A DNA stretch of 64,000 bases, taken from the NCBI RefSeq assembly GCF_046105845.1, contig NZ_CP151004.1. The stretch is one strand, 5' to 3'. The first letter of the stretch is position 1, and each line of letters starts with the position of its first letter. Shown here piece after piece: positions 4,875 to 53,300 of this stretch. The translations under genes and the position numbers were made by a program. Under the pieces are notes generated by a model, which was given only the letters and a program-made list of their open reading frames with translations, had not been told where the DNA came from and did not search any database. This DNA is from Escherichia coli. Its GTDB lineage: Bacteria > Pseudomonadota > Gammaproteobacteria > Enterobacterales > Enterobacteriaceae.

Positions 4875-5482
4875 TTAACACGTAAAATCGGTAACGGCTG
4901 GAAATCATTCAATACTCGCACTATCGGAAGTTCACCAGCCAACCGCAGCACGTTCTTGCATACGACGTGTCTGCGGTTTTTCAACCATTCAGATACAGCA
5001 CTCTCATAACATTCATTCTTCCGCATTAAAGTATATATGACCATATCACCTTAATATTTTTCTTCTTCAGATAAAAATTGTTATCTATGTATACTTTTAA
5101 ACCGAATCCGTGTAGAGTCTCTACCTAAGTTAGTTCGCAGCTCCCCCTTCAGTTTGCGCCATTAACCTCCTGACTTTTGCCGCTATCTGTAAGCATTCCT
5201 GTATACCTGAAACTACAGGGTTCATCTACGAACTTTAAGAACACCCAGGATAAAAATTGTCAACTATATTATATATAACACCATACTAATTCGAGGCTAT
5301 ATGAACAGCATACTGATAATCACTTCACTACTTATCATATTCAGCATTTTTGGTCATGCTCTAATAAAATTAGGGATTGGCATATCCAATAACCCGGACA
5401 AAACAGATGTATAAGTCAACATATCCTGAATCAGACATACAATATTGCAATGAAAACCAATAATATTTTAAGGAATATCTTC

Positions 5483-45037: not shown

Positions 45038-46804
45038 ATGAACACCACACTAACACCCGCAGATCTCGATCCCCGTCGGCAGGCCATGCTGCTGTACTTT
45101 CAGGGATACCGCGTAGCCCGCATTGCTGAAATGCTGGGCGAGAAAGTTGCAACCGTTCACAGCTGGAAAAAACGCGACAAGTGGAGTGACTATGGGCCGC
45201 TGGATCAGATGCAGCTCACCACCGCCGCACGCTACTGCCAGCTCATTATGAAGGAGCACAAAGAAGGGAAAGATTTCAAAGAGATTGACCTGCTGGCGCG
45301 CCAGTCGGAGCGCCATGCGCGGATCGGCAAGTTTAACAATGGCGGCAACGAAGCCGACTTAAACCCTAACGTTGCCAACCGCAACAAAGGCCCGCGCCGT
45401 CAGCCGGAAAAGAACGTTTTCACCGATGAACAGATTGAGAAGCTGGAAGAAATCTTCCATTCCTCCATGTTCAACTACCAGCGCCACTGGTGGGAAGCCG
45501 GAAAAACCAACCGCATCCGCAACCTGCTGAAGTCACGCCAGATCGGCGCGACCTTCTATTTTGCCCGTGAAGCCCTGATTGACGCCCTGCTAACCGGGCG
45601 TAACCAGATTTTCCTTTCCGCCAGCAAGGCACAGGCCCACGTCTTTAAGCAGTACATCATCGACTTCGCCAAAGAAGTGGAGGTGGAGCTGAAAGGCGAT
45701 CCGATGGTGCTTCCTAACGGGGCCACGCTGTACTTCCTCGGCACCAATGCCCGCACGGCCCAGAGTTACCACGGCAACCTGTATCTGGATGAATATTTCT
45801 GGATACCGAAATTCCAGGAGCTGCGCAAAGTGGCTTCCGGTATGGCTATTCACAAGAAATGGCGACAGACCTATTTTTCCACGCCATCCAGTCTGACACA
45901 CAGTGCTTATCCGTTCTGGTCCGGTGCGCTGTTCAACCGTGGGCGCAACAGAGCCGATAAGGTGGACATCGACCTGTCCCACAGCAATCTGGCCCCCGGC
46001 CTGCTGTGCGCAGACGGGCAATACCGCCAGATAGTCACCGTGGAAGATGCGGTGCGCGGCGGCTGTAACCTGTTCGACCTTGACCAGTTGCGCATGGAGT
46101 ACAGCCCTGACGAATACCAGAACTTGCTGATGTGCGAGTTCGTGGACGATCTCGCGTCCGTGTTCCCGCTCAGCGAATTGCAGGCGTGCATGGTGGACAG
46201 CTGGGAAGTCTGGACCGACTTTCATGCACTGGCCCTGCGCCCGTTTGGCTGGCGCGAAGTGTGGATCGGTTATGACCCGGCAAAAGGTACGCAGAACGGC
46301 GACAGCGCCGGATGCGTGGTGGTGGCACCGCCAGCCGTGCCAGGCGGTAAGTTCCGCATTCTTGAGCGTCACCAGTGGCGCGGAATGGACTTTCGCGCCC
46401 AGGCTGACGCCATCAAAAAACTGACCGAACAGTACAACGTGACCTATATCGGCATCGACTCAACCGGCGTTGGTCACGGGGTTTACGAGAACGTGAAAGC
46501 GTTTTTTCCTGCCGTCCGGGAGTTTGTCTACAACCCCAACGTTAAAAACGCCCTGGTACTCAAGGCCTACGACATTATCAGCCACCGCCGTCTTGAGTTT
46601 GACGCCGGGCACACCGACATTGCGCAGTCATTCATGGCAATCCGTCGCGCCACCACCGCCAGCGGCAACCGCCCGACCTATGAAGCCAGCCGCAGCGAAG
46701 AAGCCAGCCATGCCGATCTGGCCTGGGCAACAATGCACGCACTGTTTAACGAACCACTGCAGGGCGAGTCCGCCAATACCAGCAATATTGTGGAGATTTT
46801 TTGA
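45038..46804 (+). CDS. P: terminase large (ATPase) subunit (P2 gpP-like)
   Basis: 588 aa, divergent from O. Confidence 0.9.
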   Translation: MNTTLTPADLDPRRQAMLLYFQGYRVARIAEMLGEKVATVHSWKKRDKWSDYGPLDQMQLTTAARYCQLIMKEHKEGKDFKEIDLLARQSERHARIGKFNNGGNEADLNPNVANRNKGPRRQPEKNVFTDEQIEKLEEIFHSSMFNYQRHWWEAGKTNRIRNLLKSRQIGATFYFAREALIDALLTGRNQIFLSASKAQAHVFKQYIIDFAKEVEVELKGDPMVLPNGATLYFLGTNARTAQSYHGNLYLDEYFWIPKFQELRKVASGMAIHKKWRQTYFSTPSSLTHSAYPFWSGALFNRGRNRADKVDIDLSHSNLAPGLLCADGQYRQIVTVEDAVRGGCNLFDLDQLRMEYSPDEYQNLLMCEFVDDLASVFPLSELQACMVDSWEVWTDFHALALRPFGWREVWIGYDPAKGTQNGDSAGCVVVAPPAVPGGKFRILERHQWRGMDFRAQADAIKKLTEQYNVTYIGIDSTGVGHGVYENVKAFFPAVREFVYNPNVKNALVLKAYDIISHRRLEFDAGHTDIAQSFMAIRRATTASGNRPTYEASRSEEASHADLAWATMHALFNEPLQGESANTSNIVEIF

Positions 46805-47832
46805 TGGGAAAGAGTAAGAAGAACCGCGCTGCGGCGACGAAACAGATCCAGCATAAAAACCAGACTTCAGCCGAAGCATTCAGCTTCGGTGATCCCGTTC
46901 CTGTTCTGGACCGCCGCGAACTGCTGGACTATGTGGAATGCGTACAGATGGACCGTTGGTATGAGCCACCAGTGAGTTTCGACGGCCTGGCGCGAACCTT
47001 CCGCGCCGCCGTACACCACAGCTCACCGATTGCAGTAAAGTGCAACATTCTGACCAGCACCTATATCCCTCACCCGTTGCTCAGCCAGCAGGCTTTTTCA
47101 CGTTTTGTGCAGGACTATCTGGTATTTGGTAATGCCTACCTGGAGAAACGCACGAACCGCTTCGGTGAAGTTATCGCCCTTGAACCTGCCCTGGCAAAAT
47201 ACACTCGACGCGGATTAGACCTGGATACCTACTGGTTTGTGCAATACGGTATGGCAACCCAGCCGTATCAGTTCACGAAAGGCAGCATCTTTCATCTGAT
47301 GGAACCGGATATTAATCAGGAGATCTACGGCCTGCCTGGCTATCTTTCTGCTATTCCATCCGCTCTGCTCAACGAGTCCGCCACGCTGTTCCGCCGGAAG
47401 TATTACATTAACGGCAGTCATGCAGGCTTCATCATGTACATGACCGATGCCGCGCAAAACCAGGAAGATGTGAACAACCTCCGCAACGCGATGAAAAGCG
47501 CCAAAGGTCCGGGCAATTTCCGCAACCTGTTTATGTACTCGCCTAACGGCAAAAAAGATGGCATTCAGATTATCCCGTTATCGGAAGTCGCGGCGAAGGA
47601 TGAGTTTTTGAATATCAAGAACGTGAGCCGGGACGACATGATGGCAGCACACCGTGTGCCGCCACAAATGATGGGGATTATGCCTAATAATGTTGGGGGA
47701 TTTGGGGATGTGGAGAAGGCGAGCTTGGTCTTTGTTCGTAATGAACTGATTCCTTTACAAAAAAGACTGATGGAAGTAAATGTCTGGCTCAATGAAGAAG
47801 TGATTGTATTCAATAGATACATTTTAGAGTAA
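46801..47832 (+). CDS. Q: portal protein (P2 gpQ-like)
   Basis: 343 aa. Confidence 0.9.
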   Translation: MMGKSKKNRAAATKQIQHKNQTSAEAFSFGDPVPVLDRRELLDYVECVQMDRWYEPPVSFDGLARTFRAAVHHSSPIAVKCNILTSTYIPHPLLSQQAFSRFVQDYLVFGNAYLEKRTNRFGEVIALEPALAKYTRRGLDLDTYWFVQYGMATQPYQFTKGSIFHLMEPDINQEIYGLPGYLSAIPSALLNESATLFRRKYYINGSHAGFIMYMTDAAQNQEDVNNLRNAMKSAKGPGNFRNLFMYSPNGKKDGIQIIPLSEVAAKDEFLNIKNVSRDDMMAAHRVPPQMMGIMPNNVGGFGDVEKASLVFVRNELIPLQKRLMEVNVWLNEEVIVFNRYILE

Positions 47833-47862: not shown

Positions 47863-49287
47863 TTACTTACGTGTTTCAACTATATTCAGCCCCTTATAAA
47901 GGCTTTGATGGATATATACAGAACCAGTATTTGGCAACATTAAATCAGCATCTTCACATCGGAATCTAGCCGTACCGGAATTGCCCAACCGGACACCAAT
48001 CACAGAAGCATTAAATAGAGTTTTCATCAATTCACGAGAAGTATAGCGCTTACAAAGGTCAGGCGCTTTCTCTTCAATCTTACTGATGAATTCTTCTGTA
48101 GAATTATATCTATGCTGCGTCTGACGTAAAGATTCCAATAGCTCACCAAAATGAGGGTAGAGCCTTTTGTATTCTTGTTTTAAGTCCTCAACTTTCCAAG
48201 CGCTGTACCGTTCTTCAGCTATTCTAATTATATCCTTTTTTATTTCAGAAGCATTAGCATCACAGCGTTTTTGGCATTCTTGCAAAAACTGAATAACTTC
48301 TCTTGGGCGCAAAAATGTGCGCTTCACCAAATAGTTAAACGGTGAAATACTCCCTCTCATTTCACCTTCCTCAAAAATATCATCTATAGTTATATTTTCC
48401 GGCAATCTGGCGTTCACCATATCTTTCAACAACTCTGGTGTCCAGATTATTTCTTCTTCAATTGCTCGGTGTTTATCTTTATCATCAAATTCCAGCCCTT
48501 GATAAATATCAGAGCGTAAAAATGTTACAATATGAATACCTTTGGCTCTAGTATCAGAATAACTATCATTAATATCTTTTGTTGCCTTCAACAAGCCAAT
48601 CAAAAGGCTTTTGGCATCATCCGATCCATCCCAAGAATCATCTAATCGATCAGTGGCAATTAGCACCCCAATATCTGTACAAATTTCTTTAAGCTCGTCA
48701 AGGATGATTTTTATTATTTGAGGTGTCAATGGTGCTTGCGAAGCATCCTTATTAAACCCCACAGCATATCCGAAAGCCTCAAAATTGAATGAACTTAATC
48801 CCGAGAGTAACTTCCTTGCAGTTCCCAAAGTAGTTGGCGATATACCACCATAGTTATCAGAAACAAATTTTTTAATTCTAGCAAGGGCCTCCCGAGGTCT
48901 TTTCTCTGAAAATTGCCTACCTGACCTAATAATTTCTGCCGCAGCCTCAACAGCTATTGCAAATTTCCAAGCATTACAATGTGCCTGTTCGGGTAACAAC
49001 CCTTGCTCTTGATATTGTTTTAATGCTCCCCAAGCATACTGGTCTGGGGTCATGACATTTACGATAACGTCCTGCCCATATTTTGCTCTTACCAACCTTG
49101 GGAGTTGGGTAAAGATGGATGATTTCCCAGCCCCCTTTCTTCCAAGAAAATGGGCACTATAGAAACTCAGAGCTTGCTCAACTTGAGGAGTATTGATGAA
49201 ATAATCAGCCAACCTTCTATCAGCTTCAGCATCGACAGTACCAAAGTTGAGTCCCTTAACTGTAAGGCCTAACGCATCTAACCGCAC
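47863..49287 (-). CDS. P-loop NTPase of unknown family; accessory cargo between portal gene and cos
   Basis: 474 aa, GTG start with AAGGA RBS; Walker A GRKGAGKSS; possible Walker B LIATDRLDD; AT-rich by eye. Confidence 0.6.
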   Translation of the reverse strand: MRLDALGLTVKGLNFGTVDAEADRRLADYFINTPQVEQALSFYSAHFLGRKGAGKSSIFTQLPRLVRAKYGQDVIVNVMTPDQYAWGALKQYQEQGLLPEQAHCNAWKFAIAVEAAAEIIRSGRQFSEKRPREALARIKKFVSDNYGGISPTTLGTARKLLSGLSSFNFEAFGYAVGFNKDASQAPLTPQIIKIILDELKEICTDIGVLIATDRLDDSWDGSDDAKSLLIGLLKATKDINDSYSDTRAKGIHIVTFLRSDIYQGLEFDDKDKHRAIEEEIIWTPELLKDMVNARLPENITIDDIFEEGEMRGSISPFNYLVKRTFLRPREVIQFLQECQKRCDANASEIKKDIIRIAEERYSAWKVEDLKQEYKRLYPHFGELLESLRQTQHRYNSTEEFISKIEEKAPDLCKRYTSRELMKTLFNASVIGVRLGNSGTARFRCEDADLMLPNTGSVYIHQSLYKGLNIVETRK

Positions 49288-49372
49288 GATAATTCCTTAA
49301 TTGGTAAACTAAATTTGAACTTGATGCCAACAAAGATAATATCAATTTAATTAAAAAGAAAGCTGTTGCGCG

Positions 49373-49393
49373 CGCTCGTATCCCCGCCACGCC
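49373..49393 (-). other. P2/186-type cos site
   Basis: Reverse strand reads GGCGTGGCGGGGATACGAGCG, cf. remembered P2 cohesive end GGCGAGGCGGGGAAAGCAC. Confidence 0.55.
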
Positions 49394-49772
49394 TGCCCGC
49401 TTTATGCAGTGGTTTTCATGCACATGCATGACATGAGCAAAAGCCCGCCAGTTCTGGCGGATCTGAGCAAAGACGATCCTCAATCGATCATGCGATTTCA
49501 TGCAGCATAGTCATGCACTGTCAAAGAAGTAAAAATCCGTATCTGAATGGCCACTTGAAAAACGGATCATACGGGTTTACAAAGATGAATGTTCGCTGTG
49601 AACGGGAAGCGGAAGTTAACTTTCAGATAACATAATCCATATGCACGAGAACCTCTAAAATAGAATGGGACACCTAAGCGGGGTACTTACAACGATTCTT
49701 TCCATATTCACAGTTAACACTCTGTTTGGCGTATTTTTATTCAAATAGCAAACACCAATAAAAGGAGTTTCC

Positions 49773-50108
49773 ATGAACAATATTCCCCCTATACCACAGT
49801 TAGGAATTTATGTCTCAAAAATCGATCCCACCCTACGTATCACTGTAACCGATGTTGATATTGTTGATGGTGAGGATGATTCTCCTGATGATGAATTGTT
49901 TTATTTAGTCCACTGGATCGAGGGGGAAGATGAAAGTGATATGACAGCAATGGGATTTGAGCTAGACCCAGTAGAGTGGCAGGCTTTCGTTGAATCTGAG
50001 CAATTAGTGTTTGAGCGTGATCCGTACATGGATTCAATCCCCGAAAATTCAAACTTGGCAAAGATTCGGGATTTTCTCATGAAGACTAAACAGAATGATC
50101 ATTCGTAA
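49773..50108 (+). CDS. hypothetical acidic protein
   Basis: 111 aa, D/E-rich, no motif recognised. Confidence 0.4.
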   Translation: MNNIPPIPQLGIYVSKIDPTLRITVTDVDIVDGEDDSPDDELFYLVHWIEGEDESDMTAMGFELDPVEWQAFVESEQLVFERDPYMDSIPENSNLAKIRDFLMKTKQNDHS

Positions 50109-50300
50109 GTGTAAGCATCCATCAGGAAAATGGTTTTGTAAGTGAATCATCAACTTTTAGAGAGTCTCAGACACTCCCACTTCTGCTTCTGACACAAAGC
50201 GGACGATCACTTATCAAAATAACCGCCCACCTTACGCCTTATTTCACTCATTGCCCAAACTAGCCCCCATCAGAATGAATCCTCCTGGGGGCAACATTTC

Positions 50301-50534
50301 TTAATGCAGCCAGCTGTCGTCCTCCCACACCTTCTGCATAATTTTCATCACTTGTTTTCTTTCTTCATCCAGTTGCAGTCCGGTTAGTTCCACACCGTTA
50401 GAGCTACCTTTGCGAATGCGAATTACCGTTTTGGGATACAGGGGGCGCAGATTGCGGTAAAGCTCGGATTCAAGGGCGTCCAGGGTAGACTGGCTAATCT
50501 TCTGCTCTTTATCGATCATTATTTCAATGCGCAT
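50301..50534 (-). CDS. DinI-like protein (C-terminal module of a Tum-type antirepressor)
   Basis: ORF 50301-50606; MRIEIMIDKEQ...KVWEDDSWLH DinI fold signature. Confidence 0.7.
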   Translation of the reverse strand: MRIEIMIDKEQKISQSTLDALESELYRNLRPLYPKTVIRIRKGSSNGVELTGLQLDEERKQVMKIMQKVWEDDSWLH

Positions 50535-50544
50535 AAAAGTCACC

Positions 50545-50733
50545 TCAGCTGATGACATCCATTGAGCGGTTGTATTCGTGGCTTCTGATTTTTGCCATGA
50601 GTTCATCAGTCAATTCAGAAACCCACTGCAGAGCCAGCCCCTTCTCTTCATCACTACACTCACTAGCCGCTACAAGCTTAAGAAAAAAATCAATGCGCTG
50701 GAGCTTCAAAGACTCCAAAAAATAGTCCTGCAT
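50545..50733 (-). CDS. small protein upstream of DinI-like gene (Tum N-terminal-like position)
   Basis: 62 aa; LexA box in its promoter. Confidence 0.45.
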   Translation of the reverse strand: MQDYFLESLKLQRIDFFLKLVAASECSDEEKGLALQWVSELTDELMAKIRSHEYNRSMDVIS

Positions 50734-50885: not shown

Positions 50886-53300
50886 TTAATATAGGTTCCG
50901 CCACTTATCATCTTCCTTCAGACGCTGGTTCCGATAGAAGATACGCAGGCCTGCTCCTGACGGAATACTGCCGCCGCGAAGGAGCAAATCGACTTCTTTC
51001 TCGCTGCCATCAAATCCCCTGGACTTCAGTTCATAGACGAGCTGCTGTCGCTGATGGTCTGTAATTCGCTGTTTGTAGTCTTTACGCCGTTTCGGTTTCA
51101 CCTGGCGTAACCTTGCAGCCAGTTCCCGGCGCTCTTTTTTGCTCATACTGTGCAGGTAATCGTGCAACTCCTTGTCATTCATACGGGTAATATCCGTTCT
51201 GGAGTCCGCATCAGCTGATTTGTCTTTCCCTTGTTGGTTCAAATTTTCAGCAAGGGGACAGTTATTGCCACGAGTCCAAGGGGCGCAAGCGCCCTGGTCG
51301 GCTGCCGCCTCCTGAACGTCAACGACCTTACGAACCATTTTCCATTTCATTGCATGAGTGCAGATCTTGCCCTGTACAATGGGTGACCAGATGCCATAAA
51401 TACGAATACCGTGATCGCCATAAGCGGTCGGCTCTTCGTTAATTTCATAAGCTGTTCTGATAAGGTGATATTTGCGGGGAACCAGTACGCCGCCCTGCTT
51501 CATGATGTAGGTGGCAAAACAGCCAGCATCAGCGGCAGCCAGGATGGCATCAAGGCGCGGGTCATCCAGTACCGGCGCACCTGCTTTTTTGTCACCCTGT
51601 TGCCTTGCCGCCTGACCAGCCAGCAAGCGAAGTTCACGGTACGCCTGACGCCCCGGAATACCAAAGAAGCGGAACTGCTGAACACGATGCAGAGACGCCC
51701 AGGCATTAACGTATTCGGCGTTATCACGCAGGGATTTACCCGTTTCCTTGCTGATCTCGCCAGCCAGACCACGTCCGTCAATGTTCTTACTGATGTATTT
51801 CGCGATGTAGCTTGTCGGCGTTCCTTTGCGCGGGTTTATCAGCTCAGACTTAAAGCGTGGACCCGTGTTATTGCCCAGTTCCTCGCGGTCTTCACGGATG
51901 GCAAACTTACGCAACAATGCAGTAATGGCGCGGCGGTCTTTTTTGCGCATGAAACACATGAGATGCCAGTGCACAGTACCGTCATGGTGCGGCTCAGCCA
52001 CCCGCACGCCATACCAGCGCAACCCGGCTTTGTGCATAGCCTTACGAAATGCAGCAAACATGCCGACCAGATAATCGCTGCTTTGTCTTACCGTCGCATT
52101 TGTCCAGGTTGGGTTTGGTCTGCCGTTATTGAGCGTAGAATGGAAACGTGACGGACAGGTAATGGTGTAGAAAACGGCGCAGTCACCACGCATTTCCGCG
52201 ATAAGCTCCAGACCTTTAACACAGGCCATCATCTCATTGCGGCGGTGCGCCGGGTTGCTGCTGCTGGCGTTTACCACGTCTTCCATATCCAGCGTGTCGC
52301 CGTCTTCGTTCACCAGTTCATGAGAACGGAAAAACTCCAGCGACTTGCGGCGCTGCTCACGTTTATGCGTCACTGCTTCATAGCTGACATAGGGAGATGC
52401 TTTTTTGCTGACCAGGCAGACAGCACGCAACTGCTCTTCCCGCCATTCGCAACGTATCTTCCACAATTTTCGATACCACCAGTCGGCGCAAAGCATACGT
52501 GCCAGCGAACCCGGTATGAGTTCATAGGGCACGGGTTTGCGGCGGTTTCTTTTCCGACGGAGTTTCTCAAACGCAGGCGGGATAACATCCAGACGCAGGG
52601 TTTCCGCTGCCACCTTTTCCCATGTCTTGCGGATTTCTTCTGGCTTAACGTCATCGGTGGCATACAAATCACCACAAGCGGCCTCAAGACACATGCTCAT
52701 ATGCGCTGCTACCAAGGTGGACAGGCGTTTTACCTGATCCTGACTCATTTCAGGCAGGATCAGCAGGCCCTCAAGCCCTTGATGGCTTGCCATAAAACGG
52801 AAAGAAGCGGATAGCTGACTGTCGCGTACATACTCCAGTCGCTCCAGACATGACTTAATCGTCTCACGCAAATAGCGGGAATAAGCCTTTGGCCTGCCCA
52901 GGCTGCTGAAGTATTCGATACGTTGCATCAGCGGCTTGCTGATGTGGGTGGGCTGGGCGCTGACGTCCGCCAGAATGACCATGTCCGGGTTAAAACGCTG
53001 CTGCTCATGCGCCAGCTTTGCCCGACTAATGAGATTATCCTGCTCCATTTCGCGCTGGACAGGATCACGGGATTCATTAAAGAAATAACGCTCCCAGACC
53101 TGCTCACTCAGTGCATCGCGGCGCAGCTGTTCCTGCTCGTTATCGGCAGCGTACAGAGTGATCATGTTTGAAAGTGCAGACTCCGGCGCAACTTCCGCCG
53201 GGTCCAGATAAGGGTTAATGGCCTTTTTCGGGCCGTTCCATGAAAATGCTGCAGCGGCCTCGTTAAAGCCGCTAGAGTTGCTCATATCATCATGACTCAT
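50886..53300 (-). CDS. A: replication initiation endonuclease (P2/186 gpA-like)
   Basis: 804 aa; rolling-circle motif region HWHLMCF. Confidence 0.85.

Follow-up and report, generated by a model that had tools for sequence, protein, structure and literature searches.

A small acidic DUF8087 protein, possibly a stand-alone binder or decoy, encoded between cos and the Tum gene of a P2/186-like Escherichia coli prophage

The window, that is, the whole 64,000-nucleotide stretch of Escherichia coli DNA that was analysed, contains a P2/186-like prophage in which the portal gene Q, a 474-residue cargo gene, cos, the open reading frame (ORF) studied here, a DinI/Tum-like gene, a 62-residue ORF and gpA follow one another (Table 1). 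The ORF reads from an ATG through 111 codons to a TAA, and its Shine-Dalgarno sequence ends 5 nt before the start codon. It lies 380 bp from the 186-like cos core and converges on the DinI/Tum-like gene, in agreement with the first-pass annotation, which had placed it between cos and the Tum module. The first 13 nt of the cos core GGCGTGGCGGGGATACGAG equal the cohesive end of phage 186. In all E. coli copies that include the upstream DNA, the cos motif precedes the ATG by 391–440 bp. The ORF has a G+C content of 40%, compared with 50% for the window. Its product had been described as small and strongly acidic, which its composition bears out: 15 aspartates and 11 glutamates (26 acidic residues) stand against four lysines and three arginines (seven basic residues), giving a net charge of -19. 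The calculated pI is about 4 (4.05, the floor value of the algorithm).

Table 1 Features of the cos–Tum region and its surroundings, in window positions
Feature	Position	Strand	Remarks
Portal gene Q	46801–47832	+	context
Hotspot cargo, 474-aa Sll1717-family P-loop ATPase	47863–49287	-	context; outside the unit of the ORF
cos-flanking backbone common to other P2-like phages (813R9, Fels-2)	49365–49519	.	DNA comparison
cos cohesive-end core, GGCGTGGCGGGGATACGAG on the - strand	49375–49393	-	reverse complement of 49375–49393
Variable slot, cos flank to Tum	49520–50290	.	771 bp here
Mobile cassette, ~0.55 kb	49600–50144	.	~170 bp upstream, ORF and 36 bp downstream; 83–88% identity to other copies
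Fossil, 3' end of Flk_N-like tail-anchored gene	49665–49748	+	short, weak similarity
Best but weak sigma-70 candidate, TTCACA-19 nt-TATTTT	49707–49737	+	relaxed scan
Shine-Dalgarno sequence AAGGAG	49762–49767	+	read from sequence; AAGGA(G/A) kept in L046, L050 and L058, AGGAAA in L055
DUF8087 (PF26332)/phrog_17127 coding sequence, 111 aa	49773–50108	+	equals E. coli B WP_001059831.1 ('Ybl33')
Fossil, 5' end of P2-type integrase	50095–50145	+	overlaps the end of the ORF
G+C-rich hairpin at the DUF8087–DinI/Tum convergence	50263–50292	.	-15.7 kcal/mol, z -2.98
DinI/Tum-like gene	50301–50606	-	PF06183, E 1.2e-22; convergent neighbour
gpA	50886–53300	-	after the DinI/Tum-like gene

Sequence comparison indicates that the ORF is a genuine gene, kept by purifying selection, and a member of DUF8087. 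It is not a chance reading frame, because the phrog_17127 profile matches residues 1–111 of 111 (E 2e-70), PF26332 (DUF8087) is the precomputed annotation of the exact protein, and dN/dS is low, at 0.05–0.27 in pairwise Nei-Gojobori comparisons of nine copies that are 57–97% identical. The same annotation is carried by all 61 homologous clusters from a search of 5.8 billion proteins, which belong to Enterobacterales wherever the source is named. The PF26332 match is absent in our local copy of Pfam, which apparently lacks that model. When 1.84 billion cluster representatives were searched with a profile, only 34 clusters came up at E ≤ 0.001, and these include proteins of 70–106 residues that have a core of about 80 residues in common. 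Residues P8, G11 and W69 are invariant in 32 DUF8087 sequences reaching down to 25% identity, and the product of the ORF has all three; Y13, V25, V28, V46, D56, E63 and L78 are at least 90% conserved in the same set. Acidity is a property of the entire family, with net charges of -8 to -22 and a pI of at most 4.53 in 57 of 57 members examined, and it is selected, not incidental. Two antisense ORFs (49840–50061 and 49901–50080) were considered as the true genes and rejected, since codon-level conservation favours the + frame. A structural or packaging role was likewise rejected, as related phages do without the ORF. Clear homology to a structural protein, which the first-pass annotation had named as one outcome that would overturn its own suggestion, was looked for and not found.

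The gene is already catalogued (DUF8087/Ybl33) but uncharacterised. Its product is 100% identical to WP_001059831.1 of strains REL606 and BL21(DE3), which is a 'hypothetical protein' in RefSeq and Ybl33 in UniRef, and which was entered as 'hypothetical' in Table S5A, among the gpA–gpQ hotspot loci (Rousset et al. 2022, PMC9122126). We found no paper discussing PF26332, DUF8087, WP_001059831.1, phrog_17127 or ybl33 in the searchable literature, and DUF8087 is unmentioned in the supplements of a 2026 preprint on P2 and P4. What is new here is the independence of the gene from the neighbouring cargo, the acidity of the family as a whole, the predicted barrel fold, and a derivation by excision from a P2-like lysogeny operon. 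E. coli B REL606, BL21(DE3), C41/C43, T7 Express and others have the 661 bp around the ORF at 100% identity, and 131 of the 5426 complete E. coli genomes (about 2.4%) have at least 80% of this stretch. In E. coli B the ORF lies just across cos from retron Ec86, so that in BL21(DE3) and REL606, hosts among the most used of all E. coli strains, the gene is a few hundred bases away from a well-studied retron. So far, DUF8087 is known from prophages, predicted viral contigs and islands only. A tblastn search of 50,697 deposited phage genomes found no homologue, though 60 of these genomes have the flanking cos/Tum DNA, and one plasmid record matched in a tblastn search. A scan of species-representative genomes for the ORF gave four loci.

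Ten E. coli loci encode a protein identical to the product of the ORF. The cargo between portal and cos in these ten loci is retron Ec86 (reverse transcriptase and effector), one of three other reverse transcriptase architectures, a reverse transcriptase with AAA_15/SMC, GmrSD in three variants, or an AAA_21 ATPase. At this position the window carries a P-loop ATPase of the Sll1717 family, and the loci with 97% identical copies of the ORF have a TIR/SEFIR protein. At least eight different cargoes are thus found across cos beside an identical ORF. The DNA shared among the prophages begins at 49365–49370 in ten of 11 loci and at 49353 in the remaining one (L009). Because the cargo varies while the ORF stays identical, and because the shared DNA starts at cos, these alignments indicate that the ORF is neither the partner nor the antidote of the cargo across cos. 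A role as antidote or partner of the adjacent cargo was rejected, since the two do not co-vary.

The ORF is itself variable cargo, in a second, smaller slot on the Tum side of cos. The slot spans 771 bp in the window and 68 bp in phage 813R9. In Fels-2 it spans 843 bp and holds an unrelated ORF for a lipoprotein-like protein of 243 residues; the earlier placement of the ORF in a cargo hotspot therefore stands. This Fels-2 protein, STM2726, was compared with the product of a 243-residue gene that follows int in another DUF8087 locus (L053), and no homology was found. In some E. coli prophages the slot contains additional genes after DUF8087 and an integrase fragment, namely a 127-residue ORF, a GNAT acetyltransferase and an 89-residue ORF (L046, 6538–7882). 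An ORF that matches in coordinates and length also comes after the cassette in Lonsdalea (L066, 6538–6921).

Relatives of the gene occupy a different position in other P2-like prophages. There, a helix-turn-helix (HTH) repressor gene, an Flk_N-like gene, DUF8087 and the integrase gene follow in this order (L014, L052, L053/L054 and L060–L062), and the operon-type DUF8087 proteins are 42–76% identical to that of the window. The DUF8087 gene overlaps int by 4–14 nt in L053 (4 nt), L060 (14 nt) and L016. Another member of the family lies directly after int and starts 8 nt before the integrase stop codon. The Flk_N-like protein (PF27202, phrog_5825) is tail-anchored and 209–247 residues long. Its gene lies between those of the repressor and DUF8087 at 5341–5967 in L052, 5325–5969 in L053, 506–1132 in L014 and 4341–4976 in L060, and the protein resembles, more weakly, the central part of Ant-type antirepressors and the flagellar regulator Flk. 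In L014 (113–1135), and also in L052 and L053, the C-terminal end of the HTH repressor (GQGNRVAGRDFNETKK) recurs at the N-terminus of the Flk_N-like product of the next gene (GEHNRVAGRDFNENKIQ). Phage 520873 has a broken Flk_N-like gene only, and no DUF8087.

Remnants of both operon neighbours flank the ORF in the window. Upstream, 49665–49748 encodes LSGVLTTILSIFTVNTLFGVFLFK followed by a stop codon, which resembles the C-terminal membrane tail of the Flk_N-like protein; the L060 protein ends in LGCILLAGILLGAVLFK (last residues LGAVLFK), and the similarity of the window sequence is short and weak. The same fossil is found in L058 (tblastn E 2e-4). Downstream, 50095–50145 encodes MIIRKCKHPSGKWFCK and a stop codon, corresponding to the N-terminus of a P2-type integrase (MTVRKLPSGKWLCQ). 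Longer integrase fragments of 52–62 residues follow the gene in L051, L055, L064, L066 and L067, with Morganella/Providencia, Serratia and Lonsdalea among them (tblastn E 1e-15 to 3e-17), and shorter or broken remnants occur in Symbiopectobacterium (28 residues, E 4e-9) and in L050. The cassette (49600–50144) is common, at 83–88% identity, to a Morganella island (L055), L050 and L046. It is found alone in islands of Morganella/Providencia, Serratia, Lonsdalea and Symbiopectobacterium. The sites of these copies are a CP4-like island, an integrase island close to genes of conflict systems, an ICE-like region beside Imm42, and a position beside a DUF4365-TPR gene. These comparisons indicate that the cassette descends from the lysogeny-operon arrangement.

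Such an origin raises the possibility that the protein helps the phage's own lysogeny machinery, either by pairing with the Flk_N-like membrane protein or by modulating integrase or repressor. The window copy would then be a leftover that still tunes the choice between lysis and lysogeny beside Tum. The order repressor, Flk_N-like, DUF8087 and integrase, with translational overlap of DUF8087 and int, recurs in at least four lineages, and the family member directly after int fits the same pattern, as does the convergence of the window copy with a DinI/Tum gene that is SOS antirepressor-like. Against a helper function, the cassette is under purifying selection after both neighbours decayed to fossils, the gene occurs in non-phage islands that have neither a P2 integrase nor an Flk_N-like gene, and many P2-like phages do without DUF8087. 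We therefore regard a lysogeny helper as improbable. DUF8087 was kept intact by selection while both original neighbours were truncated, and therefore the gene works on its own.

The same fossils could mean instead that the ORF is a decaying, non-functional hitch-hiker carried along with the cos–Tum DNA. Gene fossils on both flanks, the lack of a recognisable promoter and the deletion within the BL21(DE3) host prophage (L005) would be in keeping with decay. Stand-alone copies from different genera, however, have dN/dS of 0.1–0.27 with all reading frames intact at 108–111 residues, a strong ribosome-binding site is retained, and decay is seen in the flanking int fragment but not in the ORF. We consider a decaying passenger very improbable indeed.

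Signals for expression of the window copy are sparse. A strict promoter scan of 49250–50350 found none, and a relaxed scan gave only two weak candidates, TTCACA-19-TATTTT (Table 1) and TATGCA-15-TAGAAT; the -35 part of the former is deleted in L050. The P2 late-promoter motif TGT-N12-ACA was not found. Nor is there a LexA box; in the single LexA-like site (49698) the critical G is missing, and the site is not conserved. An Rfam scan of 49250–50350 gave a chance match to a snoRNA only. In moving, the cassette lost the promoter of its original operon, and the sole sign that the stand-alone copies are expressed would be the purifying selection among them. The hairpin at 50263–50292 separates the ORF from the convergent Tum gene; it has no clean U-run and is a possible shared terminator of the DUF8087 and DinI/Tum genes. 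A GGAAGC hexanucleotide repeat marks the left edge of the cassette, with about two copies in the window (49596–49607), nine in L046 (5785–5838), six in L047 (5803–5838) and seven in L048 (5797–5838). Such a repeat of variable number just upstream could alter the expression of the DUF8087 gene.

The AlphaFold2 model of the product (pLDDT 76) contains a β-barrel and helices. It predicts a small SH3/Tudor-like barrel with C-terminal helices and floppy acidic loops. The most acidic stretch, residues 31–40, is also where the model is least confident (pLDDT 57), and forms a loop of variable length that is missing from several homologues. As modelled, this acidic loop does not look like a rigid phosphate-mimicking surface. 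Small β-barrels of the SH3/Tudor type, such as DUF1653 (3be3), FeoA, the N-domain of CarD/CdnL and domain I of EF-P, gave marginal scores at 6–14% identity, and the predicted resemblance is at the level of the fold only, with no bearing on function. A Foldseek search with the model gave nothing significant and no enzyme-like match, and searches of solved structures in the PDB with both profiles gave no sequence match. HMM searches against Pfam, PHROG, NCBIfam and PADLOC returned no family of known function for the product of the ORF, and PADLOC-DB v2 matched neither the window protein nor four diverse homologues. No catalytic motif was found. The protein was also considered as the antitoxin or immunity protein of a two-gene module, which was rejected as no toxin gene is adjacent: the ORF stands by itself in the E. 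coli loci and several islands, and the one neighbour that recurs, the Flk_N-like gene, survives in the window as a fossil.

T7 Ocr, ArdA and T4 Arn are small, soluble, very acidic proteins encoded on mobile elements, traits that the product of the ORF has in common with them. The first-pass annotation had likened the product to DNA-mimic or anti-defence proteins and had proposed structure prediction among its checks. Such a mimic would be made early, once the phage genome has entered the cell, and, like Ocr and ArdA, would fill the site at which a restriction or defence nuclease of the host binds DNA. Several features fit this suggestion: the net charge of -19 and the acidity of the family, the small size, solubility and lack of a catalytic motif, the position near a genome end in a variable slot, and the spread among phages, ICE-like regions and islands, as is typical of anti-defence genes. 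The copy in the Morganella island lies a few genes away from a PF03230 anti-restriction gene. The structural check did not support mimicry, as the predicted fold resembles no solved DNA mimic and presents no ordered array of carboxylates; its acidic loop is of low confidence, variable in length and absent in several homologues. There was no match to known DNA-mimic or anti-defence families in Pfam, PHROG or NCBIfam at E ≤ 1, nor any sequence or fold similarity to such families. The relatives of the gene lie in a lysogeny operon, not among early lytic genes, although an inhibitor role would still be compatible with such a placement. A 2026 survey of 1511 P2-like prophages with the DefenseFinder anti-defence models found only Anti_RM and Anti_CRISPR, in 28 elements. 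Given that 131 of the 5426 complete E. coli genomes have the ORF, current anti-defence models probably miss it, which is an indirect link. We consider a DNA mimic of this type unlikely, though worth keeping in view.

Within the gpA–cos–gpQ hotspot, the gene shares its P2-like locus with P2 old, tin and other lysogenic-conversion genes (PMC9122126). It differs from these in that its product has neither a nuclease nor an ATPase domain and has no PADLOC match, and in that its place is on the Tum side of cos; in the compared loci, the large defence cargo is found on the portal side. From DUF8087/phrog_17127/Ybl33 the product does not differ at all, being a member of this family, to which no function has been assigned. 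DinI, colicin immunity proteins and barstar are alike to it in size, in charge and in the logic of a stand-alone cytoplasmic binder, and one DUF8087 copy adjoins an Imm42 immunity gene while that of the window adjoins a DinI-like gene. However, no relationship in sequence or fold to DinI, colicin immunity proteins or barstar was detected, and no cognate toxin gene lies beside DUF8087 in the E. coli loci, the Morganella/Serratia islands or the L060-type prophages.

We propose, at somewhat less than an even chance, that the ORF is an accessory ('moron') gene of the P2/186-like prophage and encodes a stand-alone acidic binder or decoy expressed in the lysogen. The product would be a soluble cytoplasmic protein with a small barrel, C-terminal helices and flexible poly-acidic loops. 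It might bind and block, or serve as a decoy for, a basic, probably nucleic-acid-binding surface of another protein. Because no catalytic motif is present, such stoichiometric action is the most likely one. The target could be a protein of a rival phage (exclusion), a nuclease toxin (orphan immunity) or a host defence enzyme. We propose expression in the lysogen, as a lysogenic-conversion function, because in the relatives the gene lies inside the repressor–integrase operon; the present slot, where P2 keeps old and tin, also points to production in the lysogen. The placement in a lysogeny operon is circumstantial, as the window gene is now outside that operon. A binder is most plausible because the protein is small and soluble, has no enzyme features, conserves its negative charge and is encoded by a single gene on mobile elements. 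Counting against it are the lack of a convincing sigma-70 promoter and of a fold match that would hint at a partner, and the absence of the gene from all deposited phage genomes searched.

It is also possible, though in our judgement unlikely, that DUF8087 as a whole is an unrecognised family of stand-alone acidic inhibitors that has no fold match, acts in anti-defence, as a rival-phage decoy or as orphan immunity, and is traded as a 0.55-kb cassette by phages, ICEs and islands. The gene behaves as an inhibitor or decoy in conflicts between element and host might: it stays intact while its neighbours decay, hops between cargo slots and is always acidic. If this is true, the family would have a new fold, and it is directly testable in BL21 and REL606; the copy beside retron Ec86 in BL21(DE3) may already influence phage and retron experiments in that strain. 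If it is not, the gene is one of many uncharacterised phage morons.

In the BL21(DE3) prophage (L005, 7114–8559), an internal deletion fuses gpA to a CII-like (Phage_CP76) gene, while the early region of REL606 is full; the BL21(DE3) copy of the prophage is evidently defective. A 97-residue DUF8087 homologue stands almost alone beside pgsA–uvrC in several assemblies (L019–L022, 5001–5294). This is the same neighbourhood in which Enterobacter kobei has an intact P2-like prophage with the operon arrangement (L060/L061), and the 97-residue homologue looks like a gene kept after prophage decay.

The 474-residue cargo on the portal side of cos matches the NCBIfam 'Sll1717 family' (E 2.5e-84) and, weakly, the anti-phage model DS41_1; it has no match in PADLOC. 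Its DNA occurs in only one of the 5426 complete E. coli genomes, where a plasmid carries it. This Sll1717-family protein is a candidate single-gene defence system.
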